A stretch of DNA of 32,000 bases from Formosa sp. Hel1_33_131 (GTDB lineage: Bacteria > Bacteroidota > Bacteroidia > Flavobacteriales > Flavobacteriaceae). The stretch covers positions 1,380,001 through 1,412,000 of the forward strand of contig NZ_CP017260.1 of NCBI RefSeq assembly GCF_001735745.1, in the 5' to 3' direction. A program made the translations under genes and the position numbers. Below the pieces are notes generated by a model that was not told the origin of the DNA, did not search any database, and saw only the letters and a list, made by a program, of their open reading frames with translations. The stretch's first letter is position 1, and every line of letters starts with the position of its first letter. Below, piece by piece: positions 19,907 through 24,962 of this stretch.

Positions 19907-20473
19907 TTAAAAAGTATACCCAACCCTTAAATGGAGGTCCAAAGCCGTTTCAGTTTTATTAGAAGTAAATCCATATTGTTTTAAGAAATACTTCCTAAAA
20001 CCGATTCCAATGCCCAACTCATAAGTGAAATGGTTCCCAACAGTTCTTTTAATTCCCCACTTAGGGATTAATGAAAAATTTTCAGCTATAGAAACGCTTT
20101 CAATGCTTGAAATCACAAACGCATCAGGCGTGTAATTTAATTTTAAACTTAAGAAATTCCCTGAGTTCTTTAAAATCGATTGGTCGTTATTGAAGCGTTT
20201 ATTCAAATTGTAATAGAACCGAGGTTCTAAATTCAACGTTGGAAACAAAATAAAATTTACATTCTTATAATAATCACCTCCAAAAAGACCGGTATCTAAG
20301 CCTATTTCACTTCTTAAAGCGATGCTATTGGACAGTCTTGTTTCATTATGAATCCAAACACCGAAAAACCCTGTTTGAATTCCATTAATTGATTTTTCAA
20401 CACTGGCATTTTTTTGTGCTTCTGTTGTAACTGAAAATAGAATTACAGAAAGTATTAGATATAGATGTTTCAT
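19907..20473 (-). CDS. Outer-membrane beta-barrel protein (small porin-like)
   Basis: Signal peptide MKHLYLILSVILFSVTTEAQ. Alternating amphipathic strands. C-terminal LHLRVGYTF, ending in Phe as is typical for OMPs. Confidence 0.65.
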   Translation of the reverse strand: MKHLYLILSVILFSVTTEAQKNASVEKSINGIQTGFFGVWIHNETRLSNSIALRSEIGLDTGLFGGDYYKNVNFILFPTLNLEPRFYYNLNKRFNNDQSILKNSGNFLSLKLNYTPDAFVISSIESVSIAENFSLIPKWGIKRTVGNHFTYELGIGIGFRKYFLKQYGFTSNKTETALDLHLRVGYTF

Positions 20474-20488
20474 GTGTTTGTATTTTAG

Positions 20489-21022
20489 TTATAATTTAAA
20501 CCCTAGTGACAGTCCGATACTAGAGATGAGATAATTTGAATTTGTTTCCTCGATCATTAAAAACTCCTTGCTTTTCACAAAGGCTTCAACCACATATTGA
20601 ACACGATAATCACTTTCAAAAGTATAGCCAATCCCTAATTTTGAGCTGTATCCTTTTGAGAATCCACTTATATTCAAGCTTTTCCCTGCGTTTAATAAAA
20701 CATAAGGACTGTTGATCCCATATTCTTTCAAATACCATTTTACATCTCCAACAATTGGGATGGACTTATAGTCGTCTTTAACATTAAAAGCGATGCCAAC
20801 CCCCAGAGAAATACTGAGCGTCTTAAAAACAAATACACCATTGAATGTACTTAATTCAATACCAAATCCTTCATTGACAACGATGGCTTGGTTGGAGTAA
20901 TTACTTTCTTTATTGGCAAAAATCTCTAAGGTGGTTGTGTTCGTAAACACGCTTTGATTCGCTTCACCTTGAGAGAGACAAAGGGAAGGGAAAATTAAAA
21001 ATAAGAGATATACGGTTTTCAT
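20489..21022 (-). CDS. Outer-membrane beta-barrel protein (small porin-like)
   Basis: Signal peptide MKTVYLLFLIFPSLCLSQ. Beta-strand-rich sequence ending GLSLGFKL. The start is placed at the ATG at 21022; the upstream TTG extension is encoded by the repeat. Confidence 0.6.
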   Translation of the reverse strand: MKTVYLLFLIFPSLCLSQGEANQSVFTNTTTLEIFANKESNYSNQAIVVNEGFGIELSTFNGVFVFKTLSISLGVGIAFNVKDDYKSIPIVGDVKWYLKEYGINSPYVLLNAGKSLNISGFSKGYSSKLGIGYTFESDYRVQYVVEAFVKSKEFLMIEETNSNYLISSIGLSLGFKL

Positions 21023-21065
21023 GACGTAGAATAGATTTGGGATCAATTCTTAATGCAAAGTAAGA
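21016..21065. repeat. Direct repeat copy A (promoter/5'UTR/start-codon module)
   Basis: ttttcatgacgtagaatagatttgggatcaattcttaatgcaaagtaaga. It differs from 24225-24275 by 2 substitutions and one 1-nt indel. It contains the CAT (ATG on the minus strand) of the OMP gene and a near-consensus -7 box (TTACTTTG on the minus strand). Confidence 0.85.
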
Positions 21066-21079
21066 TAACGATTTAGATT

Positions 21080-21889
21080 TCACCATCGTACTTGATAAGG
21101 ATAGGGTTCATAAATTTCGTTGGCTTCATTTATAGTATTGCCCAGTTGAGCATCGCGTTTAGCCGCTTCCATAGTTGTTTTTGATTCTTTATATTTTTCC
21201 AAACGCATCAAGCAAATTGCTTTATAATATTTCGCATCGGAAAAATTAGGGTACTGTTCAAGGGATTTATCAAACTGAAATATAGCGTCCTCCCACATCC
21301 CTTGTTCATACATACTTATACCATAATAGAAAATATCTAAAAAATGCGCCTCTCCCCATTGTTTTTCTTGCGCTATAATGTCCGTTTTAAAAATAGCTTC
21401 TGCCTTTTTGTATTCATTTAACTGTAAATAGCACAGTGCAATATGAAATTGATAGGTGTGATCCTGCACATAGCTATAGCCATCCATTTGAACACATAAC
21501 TCAAAATCTTTAAGAGCTTCTTTATACTGTTTAGAAAAAATACACTTGATAAATGCTCTATAGCTTAACCAGCGTTCTGGCTTATAAAAAACGGCTTTAT
21601 CTAAATATGCCATACCAACTTCATACTTTCTTGCTTTAAAATAAGGCATTGCTTTTTGCTGCCAAAAATAAGCGACAGTACTATCGACTTTGATTCCCTC
21701 ATCTAAGCAATTTTGCCACTCCTGCATCTGATAATTATAGTTGAATTTTTCAGCACAATTGTAAACATATTTTTCAATGAGTCCTTCTTGTCGTAATTCT
21801 TTTTCTTTTGCGGTTTCAGTATGAGAATCCTTTTGCCCTTCACATTGCATAAAAATAAAGGACAGGATAATTAGTGTTAATTTATTCAT
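21080..21889 (-). CDS. TPR-repeat lipoprotein
   Basis: Lipobox LSFIFMQC. At least three or four TPR-like units (AYFWQQKAMPYFKARKYEVGMAYLDKAV; YQFHIALCYLQLNEYKKAEAIF; FYYGISMYEQGMWEDAIFQFDKSL; AKYYKAICLMRLEKYKES). The ATG overlaps the end of the upstream ORF by 8 nt. Confidence 0.75.
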   Translation of the reverse strand: MNKLTLIILSFIFMQCEGQKDSHTETAKEKELRQEGLIEKYVYNCAEKFNYNYQMQEWQNCLDEGIKVDSTVAYFWQQKAMPYFKARKYEVGMAYLDKAVFYKPERWLSYRAFIKCIFSKQYKEALKDFELCVQMDGYSYVQDHTYQFHIALCYLQLNEYKKAEAIFKTDIIAQEKQWGEAHFLDIFYYGISMYEQGMWEDAIFQFDKSLEQYPNFSDAKYYKAICLMRLEKYKESKTTMEAAKRDAQLGNTINEANEIYEPYPYQVRW

Positions 21890-22760
21890 TAGTTTTGAGT
21901 GGGTTTAATTTGGTGAATTCTTTGTAAGTAAAATTATAGGGTTGATTTCGGTATGAAAATTCTGTAAACGTATAGCCATATTTTTTGCAACTTCTAACAC
22001 ACATATCACTGATCGTTTCAAAAACAGAAATACTGTTTTTAGTTAACACCTTTTCTATACCACCATAGTGTTTTATAACATTATTAAAAGTGTTTATATC
22101 TAAGTTGTATTTTATTAAATAAAAGCCAATTCTCCCTATTGCTTCATGTGCTTGTCGCTTATCAAAACAGTTATTAGAAATACAATTATCTAAACAGAGA
22201 ATAGTGGTGTAGTACGTATATAGGGCATGAAAAAGAATATAGAAACTTCTATATTCTTTGGGGTTGTTTACGATGCTTTTAATATTTAAATTTTCATCAA
22301 TTAGAAAATAGTCTTTTCTTTTAAAGGTAATAGTGGTCATAATAATATGACCGGTTTGATGCGCAATGTCATCCACAAAAAAAACTTCATCATACTCTTT
22401 TTGAAATACATTTAAAAAAGCCATGCCATGGGCATTAATAGTAGCAAATGAATTTGTATTTTTTGGGTCTGTTTTAAATAGGAGTATTTTTTTACAACAT
22501 TGTTCAATTAAATTATAATGATTGGAGGAGTATTTTTTTATATATGACAAGGCAATTGTTAAGGACTCTTCGTGAACTTCTACTAATTCCTTTGATATAG
22601 TTATTTTACGTTCCTCAATTGGCTGTTCATTAAAATCTCTGAAAATATATTTCAAGTAGATTATAGGGTATTGTATCAGTTCAATGTTGGTATGTGCTAT
22701 GAATTTTATTTTCTCAAATGGAATAGATTCATTAACTTTAAAATATCCAATATTTGGCAC
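21882..22760 (-). CDS. Unknown protein with HQTGH...H motif (possible HExxH-type peptide-modification domain); probably the C-terminal part of a split gene
   Basis: 292-aa ORF with a GTG start. FVDDIAHQTGHIIMT (H134/H138, nt 22347-22361) is followed about 40 aa later by NNPKEYRSFYILFHALYTYY. This resembles my recollection of the HExxH-domain family layout, but with Gln in place of Glu. The frame is open upstream as far as the A7 tract shared with the 75-aa ORF. Confidence 0.55.
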   Translation of the reverse strand: MPNIGYFKVNESIPFEKIKFIAHTNIELIQYPIIYLKYIFRDFNEQPIEERKITISKELVEVHEESLTIALSYIKKYSSNHYNLIEQCCKKILLFKTDPKNTNSFATINAHGMAFLNVFQKEYDEVFFVDDIAHQTGHIIMTTITFKRKDYFLIDENLNIKSIVNNPKEYRSFYILFHALYTYYTTILCLDNCISNNCFDKRQAHEAIGRIGFYLIKYNLDINTFNNVIKHYGGIEKVLTKNSISVFETISDMCVRSCKKYGYTFTEFSYRNQPYNFTYKEFTKLNPLKTNE

Positions 22761-22776
22761 ATAAGCTATCCCATCC

Positions 22777-23004
22777 CTACTGTATGAATGGGTTAATTTC
22801 TTCTTTTTTTATAAAATAGCCCTGTAGCATCTCCTCTAGAGCTTCTTTAGGGTACGAATTGTAGCTTTTTGAGTTAAAATAAGCAAATAATAATGGCTCT
22901 AAAAAAACTTCATCATCATCAAAATTTAGTTTTTTAAAAACACTTGTATTCTCTTTATATAATAACAGTTTAATGGTATTAATAATTTCGTCTCTATTTT
23001 TCAT
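22777..23004 (-). CDS. 75-aa ORF, probably the N-terminal fragment of the gene continuing at 22760
   Basis: The ATG at 23004 lies 12 nt after the CPBP stop. The ORF ends 18 nt past an A7 run (plus-strand T7 at 22804-22810). The downstream ORF's frame opens exactly at that run. No motif recognised. Confidence 0.45.
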   Translation of the reverse strand: MKNRDEIINTIKLLLYKENTSVFKKLNFDDDEVFLEPLLFAYFNSKSYNSYPKEALEEMLQGYFIKKEEINPFIQ

Positions 23005-23016
23005 TTTTTTTAATCC

Positions 23017-23610
23017 TTAAATTAAATTAAACACAATTATCGACATATTATAAAATGAGTGAATTAGAATCGTCTGAATTAAATTTTTATTTCTGAAATA
23101 AATAAAAGTAGTTACCAATCCAAACACAAAATGGGTAATATAAATATCAGGTAGATGAGATATAGCAAAATATGATGCTGACAGTAAAATAGCCAAATAT
23201 GGCTTTAACTTAAGTTGCAAAAGGTTTTTAAAGACAATTTTTTTATTAAAAATCTCTTCTATAATTGGAACCGCAAATAAAACATAAATAAGCCTTGAAA
23301 AATCAAAGGTTGGTTTTTCTAATGGTTTAAAAAGATGAAATTCTGAATAGTAACTAAAAAACAACACTACACTTATACCAAGGGAAAAAAGGATTTCATT
23401 GAAACTGATTTTGTTACTTTCTAATTTAAAAATATTTATTTTAAAAGCTATATAGAACACAATAATATGAGAAATTATAACCCCGAAATAAGATAATAAA
23501 TTTGTTGTTTTTATGTTTTCATTGCCAAAATGAACACTTAAAAGGACACTCAAAACACTTAGAAATGGAAGTAGTAAGCATAGTGTCAATATTTTAAAAG
23601 ACAATTTCAT
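23017..23610 (-). CDS. CPBP family intramembrane glutamic endopeptidase (CAAX protease/Abi, bacteriocin-immunity-type)
   Basis: Six or more TM helices. Motif 1 PIIEEIFNK (EExxxR-like). Motif 2 YFAISH (FxxxH). Motif 3 IHSFYN (HxxxN). Confidence 0.8.
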   Translation of the reverse strand: MKLSFKILTLCLLLPFLSVLSVLLSVHFGNENIKTTNLLSYFGVIISHIIVFYIAFKINIFKLESNKISFNEILFSLGISVVLFFSYYSEFHLFKPLEKPTFDFSRLIYVLFAVPIIEEIFNKKIVFKNLLQLKLKPYLAILLSASYFAISHLPDIYITHFVFGLVTTFIYFRNKNLIQTILIHSFYNMSIIVFNLI

Positions 23611-23626
23611 ATAAATGTTTTTATAA

Positions 23627-23658
23627 AAAAAGATGATTTAATAAAAAACCATCTTTTT
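23627..23658 (-). terminator. AT-rich hairpin plus T-run between the peptide gene and the CPBP gene (possible attenuator)
   Basis: On the minus strand: AAAAAGATG-14 nt loop-CATCTTTTT, running into TTTTTTTAT. Plus-strand arms are 23627-23635 and 23650-23658. The stem is weak (mostly A-T). Confidence 0.3.
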
Positions 23659-23669
23659 ATTTAACTTAT

Positions 23670-23876
23670 CTACATACATTGAAAATAATGGGCTATTGCA
23701 TTACCAAGTTTTAGCCACGAAGAAGCCATTCCATCTCCTGGTGCACTAGTGTCTGCATTTTGGTGACTACAAGGATGACAATCGTTTGCTGTTCCACCAG
23801 AAATGGTGTTCAATAATTCTTCTGAAGCTACTGCTCCAGCTCTTTCTTTGAGAGCGTCTAATGATAATTTACTCAC
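23670..23876 (-). CDS. Candidate precursor peptide with double-glycine-type leader (bacteriocin/RiPP-like)
   Basis: 68 aa with a GTG start. Leader MSKLSLDALKERAGAVASEELLNTISGG, with hydrophobic residues at -4 and -7, Glu at -9/-10 and Ser at -11 relative to the GG. The 40-aa core is TANDCHPCSHQNADTSAPGDGMASSWLKLGNAIAHYFQCM. The gene is followed by a protease-family gene. Confidence 0.55.
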   Translation of the reverse strand: MSKLSLDALKERAGAVASEELLNTISGGTANDCHPCSHQNADTSAPGDGMASSWLKLGNAIAHYFQCM

Positions 23877-24009
23877 AACATAATAAATTTTATTTAGTGC
23901 CTACTCTTTAGTTTTTCGGCGACCACTAGTCAATAAGCTTTTCCTAACCAACCAATTACAAAATAAAAACATCTCAATCTCATTTTATGACATTGTCTAT
24001 TTTTTATAA

Positions 24010-24231
24010 TTAAATCTCAAAATTGTAACCTGCCTCTGTATATATATAACACTGAGAATGTTTACAATATAGGATGGGTGCGCCCCGATCTCTTAATTCA
24101 GCGATCAGCCTGTAAACAGTGGCAACAGAAACATTCAATTTTTCAGCTAATTGTAAAGGCGTACCAGTTGCTTCCCTTTGGATCAATGAATGAAGGCATT
24201 TTATTCTTTCTATGTGCGTGTATATTTTCAT
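24010..24231 (-). CDS. Small helix-turn-helix DNA-binding protein (HTH_11/DeoR-N-like)
   Basis: 73 aa. GTPLQLAEKLNVSVATVYRLIAELRDRGAPI is a classic winged-HTH segment of the kind found at the N-terminus of WYL/DeoR-type regulators. Confidence 0.7.
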   Translation of the reverse strand: MKIYTHIERIKCLHSLIQREATGTPLQLAEKLNVSVATVYRLIAELRDRGAPILYCKHSQCYIYTEAGYNFEI

Positions 24232-24275
24232 GGTGTAGAATAGATTTGGGAGTCAATTCTTAATGCAAAGTAAGA
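24225..24275. repeat. Direct repeat copy B (promoter/5'UTR/start-codon module)
   Basis: ttttcatggtgtagaatagatttgggagtcaattcttaatgcaaagtaaga. It contains the CAT (ATG on the minus strand) of the HTH gene. See copy A. Confidence 0.85.
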
Positions 24276-24338
24276 AATTTTTTCAAATCGGCTTTTTTTA
24301 TGGCATAAAACTTGTAGAAGAAAAACAAATCCAAAACT

Positions 24339-24962
24339 ATGAATACCTACAAAAGATTAATTATTGGTTCTCTTATCTTATTTTCAAACATATCATTTTC
24401 GCAAACTCAAGGAACATCCGAAATTAATGTGAGTTTGGGGGTCGCAACTTTTGAGGACTTTAGAGTTGCACTTGACGATGTTGTATCCTCGATAGTGACG
24501 ACTGTAATTTCTGGACAAGAATTAACTTACTCCGATGGAGGTAGATTAACAGGATATACGGCTCACTATGGTTACGCAGTAAAGGATCGATGGATGTTAG
24601 GAGCCTCATTAGCATACCAAACCGTAAATCGAAAGTTATTTTTAGACAATAAAGAATCAGGGAAAAGTTCAAGTGCAGTCTATTCTTTTGGGATCGAAAC
24701 AAATTACCGCTACATTTCAAATCCAATATTTCAAATGTATTCTGGTTTAGGTGCAGGCTATGCTTTTGGGAAATCATCATTTACCTTAGAAGACGCTAAT
24801 TTGGAGTTTAAAGATAAGAACAAGACTGATTATAAAATTAATTATTTTACATTTCATGTGACAGCGCTTGGTTTTCGAGTAGGAAAGAAATTAGCGGCCT
24901 TCGCAGAAATCGGGTTTGGTTATAAAGGGATCTTAAATGGGGGAATTTCTTATCAATTTTAG
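24339..24962 (+). CDS. Outer-membrane beta-barrel protein (OmpW/porin-like)
   Basis: Signal peptide LIIGSLILFSNISFSQTQ. Alternating strands. C-terminal GGISYQF. Confidence 0.7.
   Translation: MNTYKRLIIGSLILFSNISFSQTQGTSEINVSLGVATFEDFRVALDDVVSSIVTTVISGQELTYSDGGRLTGYTAHYGYAVKDRWMLGASLAYQTVNRKLFLDNKESGKSSSAVYSFGIETNYRYISNPIFQMYSGLGAGYAFGKSSFTLEDANLEFKDKNKTDYKINYFTFHVTALGFRVGKKLAAFAEIGFGYKGILNGGISYQF

Follow-up and report, generated by a model that had tools for sequence, protein, structure and literature searches.

Organization of the locus

The locus lies in the genome of Formosa sp. Hel1_33_131 (contig NZ_CP017260.1), in a 32,000-nucleotide stretch that was analysed as a whole and is referred to as the window. 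A repeat of about 50 nt occurs here in two copies, A and B, and each copy provides the start codon of a different gene. The features are listed below with their window coordinates. The -7 boxes were read from the sequence with the consensus of PMC9723704 and PMC6847099, and the cores were located by an exact 17-mer search.

19907..20473, minus strand: OMP-like gene, 188 aa, constant partner of the 177-aa gene
20489..21022, minus strand: OMP-like gene, 177 aa, with signal peptide; start codon within copy A
21016..21065, minus strand: repeat copy A (rep2), the same module as copy B, ending in ATG + AAAA of the 177-aa OMP-like gene
21026..21042, minus strand: conserved core TCCCAAATCTATTCTAC of copy A
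21055..21062, minus strand: predicted -7 box TACTTTGC of copy A
21080..21889, minus strand: TPR lipoprotein gene, 269 aa, resident between both copies in haplotypes B and C
21897..24224, minus strand: HTH-to-292-aa block, 2,328 nt, with HTH73, a 68-aa GG-leader peptide, a CPBP protease and 75-aa and 292-aa ORFs
24010..24231, minus strand: HTH_11 regulator gene, 73 aa (PF08279, E 4.4e-8); start codon within copy B
24225..24275, minus strand: repeat copy B (rep1), with -7 box, leader and ATG + AAAA of the HTH gene
24235..24251, minus strand: conserved core TCCCAAATCTATTCTAC of copy B
24265..24272, minus strand: predicted -7 box TACTTTGC of copy B
24290..24314, plus strand: ancestral atpG terminator tail GGCTTTTTTTATGGCATAAAACTTG, at the edge of the inserted island
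24339..24962, plus strand: OMP_b-brl gene, 207 aa, divergent, in the left flank

In four other species (G006, G009, G013 and G018), atpG, the hairpin and the terminator tail run straight into the downstream genes, and no insert is present. The OMP177/188 gene set was absent from the 18 other genus species searched, and distant homologues of the 177-aa protein have no MK start and have unrelated upstream DNA. Homologues of the HTH_11 regulator that stand behind the same module lead other peptide-modification cassettes. A search for terminator-like sites from the TPR stop codon to copy A found none. Therefore, the OMP genes could be transcribed by read-through from copy B, and copy A would then be redundant.

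The two repeat copies are near-identical and the only ones in the genome

Copies A and B were aligned with MAFFT, both in the minus-strand sense. Between 21016-21065 and 24225-24275 the alignment shows two substitutions and a single indel, with 47 of 50 positions matching (94% over 50 nt). The repeat finder recovered the same pair, as D4 and D6. This bore out the claim of the earlier note that a near-identical direct repeat of ~50 nt is present. The identical block spans TCTTACTTTGCATTAAGAATTGA to ATGAAAA and has two interruptions: copy B has one more C (GA[C]TCCC), and the two copies differ (GT versus AC) directly 5' of CATG. Beyond the 50-nt block, the likeness ends at once on either side. 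The repeat heads two unrelated genes, as had also been claimed, since the HTH_11 regulator and the OMP-like protein show no similarity after Met-Lys.

A pattern search of the 2.74-Mb genome with up to three mismatches returned copies A and B only, and the reversed control pattern gave zero matches at the same threshold. With the nhmmer family profile, both copies were recovered at E ~1e-13, and no other genomic match was better than E 0.01. The proposed search for further copies thus showed that the repeat is not a generic genome-wide element. Rfam covariance models gave no match to copies A and B at E up to 1, nor to eight related loci at gathering thresholds.

The repeat carries a predicted -7 box, a leader and a conserved core

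The -7 consensus of Bacteroidota is TAnnTTTG or TAnnTTGY at positions -12 to -5 (PMC9723704, PMC6847099). The box TACTTTGC fits TAnnTTGY exactly (motif SM5, PMC9723704) and TAnnTTTG with one mismatch. From this match, we infer that the repeat has promoter activity, and transcription would start about 5 nt downstream of the box, near AAGAATTGA. The window copies have the -7 box match but no TTTG near -33 (~19-nt spacing), whereas pyrH-type members of the family do have TTTG at this spacing. Of the earlier reading of a -7 box, a leader and an ATG, the Bacteroidota-type box, the leader and the ATG of two unrelated genes stood, but the box reads TACTTTGC.

The leader is ~32 nt long and holds a strictly conserved core, YCCCAAATCTATTCTAC. 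It contains no G between GAT and the AUG, and copy B has an A at -3. The exact 17-mer core was found in 6 of the 19 genus genomes, and a one-mismatch form was present in two more; its occurrence in 120-150 other genera was not above chance. An inverted repeat AGAAT-N13/14-ATTCT had been described as a possible operator. This was corrected to AGAATTGA / TCTATTCT, with 7 of 8 positions paired and the loop (C)TCCCAAA. As RNA, these arms fold weakly (-2.8 and -3.8 kcal/mol, z ~ -1). The conserved core may be bound by a regulator.

Four more promoters in this genome have a shorter core 11 nt past the -7 box, and each genus genome has 2-7 such promoters. At this spacing, the core covers the predicted transcript start in two promoter families. 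The promoters with the shorter core include those of genes for Dps-like, SIMPL-like and lectin-like proteins. A genus-specific promoter-proximal motif, YCCCAAATCT(N)ATTCT, was defined, and a small group of accessory and stress-type genes carries it.

The module forms a family with a sharp ATGAA(A) boundary

The repeat belongs to a family that consists of a -7 box, the conserved core CCCAAATCTATTCTAC and ATGAAA. The family is restricted to the genus ("uncultured Formosa"-like MAGs). Among 34 distinct modules, taken from marine metagenomes and from genomes of the genus, the upstream part has diverged, the core is kept and no homology extends past ATGAA(A); the metagenome set was gathered by an exact 22-base pattern, so that its core identity and ATGAA boundary partly reflect how it was collected. 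A conserved core and an ATGAA boundary were likewise seen in the 17-mer search of the genus, which is less biased. By comparison, ATGAAA begins only ~25% of the long ORFs in this genome.

Across several loci, six or more unrelated types of gene follow ATGAA(A), where homology stops. The downstream types include HTH regulators, a macro-domain protein, the OMP-like gene, a 135-aa protein and a 107-aa protein, and further types are a long non-coding leader, GNAT genes and integrase genes. HTH-led cassettes follow the same module at other loci, including one downstream of argH, and one such cassette elsewhere carries an ATP-grasp and SPASM pair.

Population haplotypes at the locus

The earlier note had suggested a search for an empty site, and such a site was found with a single hybrid repeat copy in three independent metagenome contigs (L111, L112 and L113). 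In these contigs the OMP genes are directly divergent from the neighbouring OMP gene. The single copy is a B-5'/A-3' hybrid, with the upstream flank of copy B on one side and the copy A OMP gene on the other. The three assemblies came from different samples, and one was made at k=119, which is longer than the repeat.

Haplotype B (L110 and L203) has both copies and the TPR gene, and a 99-nt relic leader replaces the 2,328-nt block. In its flanks it matches the window at 99.2% and 98.2% identity, and copy A of L110 is identical and unchanged in position. The relic leader has its ortholog in the more distant haplotype D (G003); therefore, B is probably the older state. The 2.3-kb block would then be a later swap-in and the duplication would be older, although three about equidistant lineages fit insertion as well as deletion (A versus B and C). 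Contigs with an identical OMP207 protein show B, C and F, the last with other cargo after the HTH gene. Two contigs with identical OMP207 end inside the module, one of them exactly at ...CATGAAAA, as expected at an assembly-graph branch point. Haplotypes A to D and F were all observed directly.

The segment between the copies is not one mobile unit, because haplotype B keeps both copies and the TPR gene without the HTH-to-292-aa block. The earlier view of 3.2 kb as one inserted cassette was rejected on these grounds; both B and F alter the content between the repeats and keep both flanks. For the attL/attR-like interpretation, the direct repeats and the one-copy empty site agree, but the variable content in B and F does not.

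Interpretation of the repeat

The repeat is probably a portable promoter-leader-start codon module that is reused, with gain and loss by homologous recombination. From 5' to 3', the module would comprise the -7 box, the predicted start, the ~32-nt leader and the start codon with a Lys codon (ATGAAA). It would be fused in frame to unrelated genes and would head small accessory-gene cassettes in a few hypervariable spots, among them one beside pyrH and, at the present locus, one within the atpG terminator tail. Copy B would drive the HTH-led peptide cassette and the TPR gene, and copy A would drive the two OMP-like genes. The module may double as a homology arm, since it is a near-identical direct repeat of ~50 nt that lies in the same place in sister strains. 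A crossover between copies A and B would delete or add the intervening genes and would give the single-copy hybrid haplotype. Recombination between strains would swap the stretch from the module ATGAAA to the next conserved gene, which could account for the 2.3-kb HTH-to-292-aa block versus the 99-nt relic. We infer that the recombination is homologous and not site-specific. However, homology breaks off at ATGAA(A) more uniformly and abruptly than would be expected from plain homologous or illegitimate recombination, which may hint at a directed mechanism.

Under directed insertion, which we regard as unlikely, the module or its ATGAA end would be a docking site, and cassettes without a start codon of their own would be inserted just 3' of the module ATGAA, each bringing a new module copy that ends in ATGAA and thereby restores the downstream gene. 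The agent could be the Y1/HUH transposase-like machinery of the ~90-nt ATGAA elements, or another recombinase acting on the core. In every context homology ends exactly at ATGAA(A), but ATGAAA starts about a quarter of the genes anyway, and directly past ATGAAAA the DNA is normal coding sequence with conservation at the protein level. Tandem arrays in which each unit is module-led were found in the window and at two other loci (L057 and L062), whereas other loci have the module at the cassette 5' end only, with no second copy. The 5' limit of the duplicated segment also varies, from ~14 nt past the TPR stop codon here to at least 75 nt in L057, and this argues against a directed process. The hybrid single-copy haplotype fits a crossover inside the 17-nt core, and the 2.3-kb block is flanked by ATGAAAA on one side and, on the other, by the ATGAAT with which the TPR gene starts. 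The stretch from one ATGAAAA to the other is formally 3' of ATGAA and ends in ATGAA, and a duplicated promoter-start unit predicts the same.

The genome contains 19 of the ~90-nt elements, all bounded by ATGAA...ATGAA and including a triple tandem array, and six PF01797 (Y1_Tnp) matches. In L058 and L071, a ~90-nt element follows directly after the module ATGAA, and ATGAA is recreated behind the element. These observations favor directed insertion, but an nhmmer profile of the 19 elements found nothing in the window, the module, the relic or the long leaders, and the cassettes have no hairpin-bearing ends. The sole integrase behind a module-like motif (G012) has homologues without the motif, the nearest ~100 kb away.

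In a related reading that we hold to be quite unlikely, the module would be the docking site of a new cassette system in marine Flavobacteriaceae, with arrays growing at ATGAA. Each cassette would add a promoter-leader-start unit, and every gene would keep a start codon. The insertions might be carried out by the ATGAA-directed machinery behind the spread of the ~90-nt elements.

It is likewise improbable that the copies represent a shared operator only, that is, independent regulon members kept alike through selection for one regulator, possibly HTH73. The OMP genes would then be coupled to the peptide cassette, and the repeat would have no role in recombination. The core lies at a fixed 11 nt from the -7 box in two promoter families, and the module is often followed by HTH genes. 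Nevertheless, all 50 nt are alike, including positions that are free to vary in other family members, which indicates recent common descent of copies A and B; in addition, sequence has been physically gained and lost at the module, as seen in the single-copy haplotype and the others. The imperfect palindrome AGAATTGA-N7-TCTATTCT, with half-sites each one nucleotide longer in the second family, is consistent with an operator, but changes in its left half-site are not mirrored in the right one. Most genus genomes with the exact core gave no HTH73 homologue; therefore, the local HTH protein is not a general core binder. The shared cis-regulatory module of the earlier note thus gains from the fixed distance between core and -7 box in other genus promoters, but not with HTH73 as its general binder.

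A classical integrative element, a 3.2-kb island with attL/attR and an integrase since lost, is very improbable. In its favor, the genes are flanked by direct repeats and there is an empty site. However, no recombinase was detected among the ten locus genes with Pfam and NCBIfam, haplotype B makes the inter-repeat segment a composite that changes independently of the repeats, and the repeats are promoter-leader-start codon units that stand singly before many genes. No terminal inverted repeats or target duplication were found to accompany the unit.

Comparison with known systems

Promoter reuse before unrelated genes has been catalogued but seldom caught with intermediate states. In one marine flavobacterial lineage, natural populations show no insert (other species), a single-copy site, a two-copy array, a recent 2.3-kb cassette swap and alternative cargo. 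All junctions fall on a single module, the predicted source of promoter, leader and start codon. The portable module provides a testable model for how newly acquired genes gain expression in bacteria without Shine-Dalgarno sequences, with a peptide-modification cluster and outer-membrane proteins limited to one searched species as examples. If the ATGAA boundary is mechanistic, cassette traffic would be linked to the ATGAAA-targeting repeats of Bacteroidota.

Integrons consist of the IntI integrase with an adjacent attI, and their promoterless cassettes carry a 3' attC recombination site. Similar to integron arrays, the locus has small accessory cassettes in tandem at a fixed chromosomal spot with strain-variable content. 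Unlike integrons, it has neither IntI nor an attC structure, and each cassette has its own predicted 5' promoter and start codon. The module resembles the ~90-nt ATGAA elements of this genome in that it abuts ATGAA(A) and leaves the downstream gene a working start codon; it differs from them in having no profile similarity, no long hairpin, a predicted promoter and only two copies in this genome.

Putative mobile promoters (PMPs) and promoter reuse were catalogued by Matus-Garcia, Nijveen and van Passel 2012 (PMC3575422). As in a PMP, two upstream regions of one genome share at least 80% identity over at least 50 nt, here in the region -45 to +7, and the adjacent coding sequences, an HTH_11 regulator and a signal-peptide OMP-like protein, are non-paralogous. 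Further likenesses are that near-identical non-coding DNA precedes unrelated genes, is common to related species and matches no known IS element and no Rfam family. However, PMPs were defined on upstream positions -150 to -50 (PMC3575422), whereas the module at -45 to +7 includes the start and Lys codons, so that each new gene is a translational fusion. Gain and loss of the module are also documented by population haplotypes, including an empty site, and exchangeable cassettes stand behind the module at fixed hot spots.

Promoter capture by duplication or recombination is exemplified by the cit+ event of the E. coli long-term experiment, as far as it is described in PMC3575422. As in that account, a duplicated resident promoter fronts a second, otherwise promoterless set of genes (OMP177/188). 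In contrast to the one-off capture described there, the module belongs to a family found repeatedly in different species and at different loci, with a uniform ATGAAA junction throughout.

A predicted promoter-to-start-codon repeat in two copies

Two copies of a direct repeat lie at the locus, and both read on the minus strand as TCTTACTTTGCATTAAGAATTGA(C)TCCCAAATCTATTCTAC(GT/AC)CATGAAAA. Copies A and B are distinguished by an indel and two adjacent substitutions, with an abrupt loss of similarity at both ends, which confirmed the near-identical pair described in the earlier note. The search for further copies that it proposed covered the genome, a single contig of 2,735,158 bases. With up to three mismatches allowed, pattern matching found only copies A and B (reversed control, 0), and a profile search gave E ~1e-13 for each copy and nothing better than E 0.01 elsewhere. 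A generic promoter element was ruled out by the presence of only two genomic copies and by the background-level occurrence of the core outside the genus. Rfam showed no match on the repeat or related leaders, which argues against a known RNA family. The ATG of the gene behind each copy lies inside the repeat, hereafter called the module:

Copy B, 24225-24275, minus strand: module with the start of the gene for an HTH_11 protein of 73 aa (HTH73; PF08279, E 4.4e-8)
Copy A, 21016-21065, minus strand: module with the start of the gene for a 177-aa protein with the signal peptide MKTVYLLFLIFPSLCLSQ

As had been proposed, the HTH_11 protein and the signal-peptide protein are unrelated past Met-Lys. 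The genes behind copy B on the minus strand encode HTH73, a 68-aa peptide with a GG-type leader, a CPBP/Rce1-like intramembrane protease, ORFs of 75 aa and 292 aa, and a 269-aa TPR lipoprotein. Copy A begins 14 bases past the TPR stop codon and is followed on the same strand by the 177-aa and 188-aa OMP-like genes. No terminator-like site was found between the TPR gene and copy A, so that read-through from copy B is possible. The block is flanked by the converging atpG on one side and by a diverging gene for a 207-aa OMP_b-brl protein (OMP207; 24339-24962, plus strand) on the other. No recombinase is encoded at the locus.

Three further observations were made on these genes. A match to the DUF805b RNA motif (RF02914) at 23898-23929 (minus strand) scored 33.5 bits (E 1.2e-6; gathering score, 35.6), and 22 nt separate it from the GTG start of the downstream gene for the 68-aa peptide. 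The 75-aa and 292-aa ORFs (21882-23004, minus strand) form a single ORF of 374 aa in contig L200 (3541-4665), which carries other likely indel errors; the split seen in the window recurs in contigs L199, L201, and L208. A paralogue of the TPR lipoprotein with 49% protein identity lies at genome position 137877-138698 (plus strand).

Predicted promoter, leader, and core

The box TACTTTGC is an exact match to TAnnTTGY, or a one-mismatch form of the sigma-A box TAnnTTTG. Since such boxes occupy positions -12 to -5 (PMC9723704, PMC6847099), the transcript start is predicted near AAGAATTGA, with a leader of ~32 nt. The leader has no G from GAT to AUG, and position -3 of copy B is occupied by an A, which favours initiation in Flavobacterium (PMC6847099).

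A shorter core, CCCAAATC(N1-2)ATTCT, was found at the same 11-nt distance from the -7 box in four other promoters of the window genome, those ahead of genes for a secreted protein and SIMPL-like, Dps-like, and lectin-like proteins, and occurred 2-7 times per genus genome compared to 0-1 times for the control. This suggests that a common factor acts where these transcripts begin. The shared cis-regulatory module suggested earlier is partly supported by the presence of the short core in other promoters, but HTH73 is not its general partner, since no HTH73 homologue was found in the majority of exact-core genomes of the genus.

We considered whether the leader acts as a structured RNA. In single-sequence folding, the palindrome AGAATTGA / TCTATTCT gave a weak fold in both window copies, and its left arm drifts with no matching change in the right arm. 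RNAalifold on eight long leaders of the pyrH-locus type, described below, gave two short hairpins only, with no compensatory changes. A structured leader was therefore rejected, and the weak fold together with the uncompensated left arm favours recognition of the core as primary sequence.

These four belong to a second promoter-leader family, with the sequence TTTCTTAAATTTA-N4-cAGACTTAGAYCCCAAATCT(R)ATTCTTCA and leaders 130-275 nt long behind it. The family has 2-7 members per genome across the genus and may mark a genus-specific regulon:

Genome 2137220, 2159568, 2325485, and 2327226 (-), outside the window: second family, before genes for a secreted protein and SIMPL-like, Dps-like, and lectin-like proteins

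Natural haplotypes of the locus

Among the genomes of 18 other species in the genus, none had a homologue of the 177-aa protein; near-identical proteins are present in marine metagenomes. Distant homologues start with MILL, MNKS, MRKY, MSAK, or MPFK and have unrelated upstream DNA, which indicates that the Met-Lys of the 177-aa gene comes with the module. An ATGAAA start is found in ~25% of the long ORFs of the window genome. Contigs found via the 177-aa protein and other proteins gave the following series:

Haplotype A (contigs L111, L112, L113): divergent OMP gene, upstream flank of copy B, single module, 177-aa and 188-aa genes, atpG
Haplotype B (L110, from a 113-kb contig; L203): OMP207, first module, 99-nt non-coding relic, TPR gene, second module, both OMP-like genes
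Haplotype C: the window; again in L069, L199, L201, L208
Haplotype D (species G003; contigs L067, L076): one module, the same relic, TPR gene, then atpG
Haplotype F (L207): identical OMP207 protein, module and HTH gene, then directly a different gene

Haplotype A is the empty site that the earlier note had proposed to look for, with one module copy directly before the OMP-like genes. Its contigs came from three samples and assemblers, one of them at k=119, which exceeds the repeat length. The single copy, ...GAATTGACTCC-AAATCTATTCTACGTCATGAAAACCGTATATC, is a hybrid, with the GAC form of copy B on the 5' side and the GT form and OMP gene of copy A on the 3' side. The second module of haplotype B is identical to copy A. 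Haplotype D has neither OMP-like gene.

Two contigs with an identical OMP207 protein end inside the module, one of them exactly at ...CATGAAAA; this is assembler behaviour where co-existing variants branch. Contig L077 (1.2 kb, 1.5x coverage) was rejected as a recombinant haplotype, since its match to contig L065 extends only 56 nt past the module and it is possibly an assembly chimera.

In four more distant species (G006, G009, G013, G018), atpG is followed by a terminator hairpin, the tail GGCTTTTTTTATGGCATAAAAGTTG, and then directly the downstream genes. Immediately upstream of copy B, this tail recurs at 24290-24314. These results indicate that the whole block is an island inside the atpG terminator. 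The flank upstream of copy B, considered as a second repeat in G003, is actually the T-tail of this ancestral terminator.

Order of events

Haplotypes B and C were 99.2% identical in the left flank (p176 to ATGAAAA) and 98.2% identical in the right flank (from 7 nt before the TPR start through atpG). The sole difference between them is 2,328 nt in the window (21897-24224, HTH to 292-aa ORF) against the 99-nt relic. The relic of haplotype B has an orthologue in the more distant haplotype D (~85-89% identity), and only a 56-nt stretch of the relic, ~71% identical, aligns to the 3' end of the 292-aa-type gene (score 31; shuffle mean 19, maximum 30). So slight a trace marks an old, diverged remnant and rules out a simple recent deletion of the window cassette. 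Because the relic is also shared with the distant haplotype D, it represents the older state in the lineage. Judged from this comparison, the intact HTH-to-292-aa block is a recent arrival by replacement, with junctions at the module ATGAAAA on the left and at the TPR start on the right.

The TPR gene was already bracketed by two module copies before the block was swapped. The view of the 3.2-kb segment as one inserted cassette was therefore not sustained: the segment is composite, as haplotype B has both modules and the TPR gene without the HTH-to-292-aa block. No pair among haplotypes A, B/C, and D is markedly closer than another (85-90%). Whether A lost the segment or B/C gained it, the two marker differences bound the exchange point and place it in the 17-nt core.

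The module in other genomes

In a DNA search of relatives, other species matched the 3' half of the repeat and nothing else. Of the 19 genus genomes, 6 carry the exact 17-mer TCCCAAATCTATTCTAC once or twice and 2 others carry it with one mismatch; in 120 to 150 further genera of the family it was at background level. Exact-pattern scans found the module in 34 contigs from marine metagenomes and in four species genomes (MAGs with the label Flavobacteriaceae or "uncultured Formosa sp."); these scans demanded the core and CATGAA, so that identity there is by construction. When the 17-mer was searched without demanding ATGAA, each occurrence was still followed by ATGAA or a one-base variant. The 34 distinct modules have a common plan of -7 box, ~11 variable bases, GA(Y)CCCAAATCTATTCTAC, two variable bases, and CATGAA(A), and have nothing in common past it.

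Behind the modules we found HTH73 homologues heading peptide cassettes (one downstream of argH, another with ATP-grasp and SPASM-domain enzymes), as well as genes for a macro-domain protein, a 135-aa protein, a 107-aa protein, and GNAT proteins. The ATP-grasp case, at L065 716-2907, is a different peptide cassette with an ATP-grasp enzyme (320 aa) and a SPASM-type radical-SAM-like enzyme (347 aa), 'grasp-with-spasm'-like by sequence reading. Two-module arrays were found in L057 and L062.

The commonest sequel to the module was a long non-coding leader, divergent from pyrH, before variable accessory genes. At the pyrH locus of the window genome, the promoter and most of the core are deleted and only TATTCTAC is left; the element is decayed in species G018 and deleted in G002 and G005. 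The short ORF MKNVWF after this module was rejected as coding, since its nucleotides are conserved across a 1-nt indel that changes the reading frame. A second hypervariable spot is formed by the pyrH-GH16 interval (L027, L032, L037, L038, L053, L054, L056, L057, L070, L074). There the module putatively drives the leader (ATGAAAAATGTATGGTTTACATAAGGGTTTTAGGAGGG...), with its AUG inside an ACCAUG...AUGGU hairpin, and the genes that follow vary (DUF1016-like, membrane protein and GNAT, macro-domain, others).

A core with one mismatch (TCCCAAATCGATTCTAC), followed by ATGAAAAA, lies directly before a 376-aa tyrosine-recombinase-like gene in species G012 (L035, 1500-2652); the gene adjoins a porphobilinogen-synthase (hemB)-like gene, judged from translated sequence.

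How the module moves

No terminal inverted repeats or target duplication were found for the module. At other loci it is present only at the cassette 5' end, and the upstream limit of the duplicated segment varies between arrays. Together with the lack of a recombinase at the locus, this is consistent with ordinary recombination. The observed haplotypes would result from exchange between the two 50-nt copies, or between sister strains that have in common the module at one end and a conserved gene at the other. Selection would then keep in-frame fusions only.

A directed mechanism that moves cassettes at the ATGAA boundary seems unlikely to us. The modules do share this uniform boundary, and in L058 and L071 a ~90-nt element lies directly after the module ATGAA. 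The window genome has 19 such copies bounded ATGAA...ATGAA, with one triple tandem array, and six Y1 transposase-type matches (Y1_Tnp, PF01797). However, the element profile had no match in the window, the module, or its leaders; the same search ruled out the repeat as a member of this family. The element reads ACATCCATAACTAAAACTTGATACCCAAGG...ATGGATGT...GTGACCNTTAAAAAACAATAAATANAAACACATGAA, always with ATGAA before it and at its end, ahead of unrelated genes, for example:

Genome 2084922-2085193: three ~90-nt elements in tandem
Genome 1653191-1653280: ~90-nt element
Genome 2358760-2358849: ~90-nt element

The G012 integrase was dismissed as the mover, as its homologues in G000 (the window genome), G004, G013, and G001 have unrelated upstream DNA without the motif.

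We compared the module with known systems. The locus showed neither the defining recombinase nor the unit-like behaviour of an integron or a classical integrative element and is therefore neither. The closest described phenomenon is promoter reuse, also termed "putative mobile promoters" (PMC3575422), together with promoter capture. Unlike putative mobile promoters, the module extends through the start codon and heads swappable cassettes at fixed hot spots, and its steps are documented by natural haplotypes.
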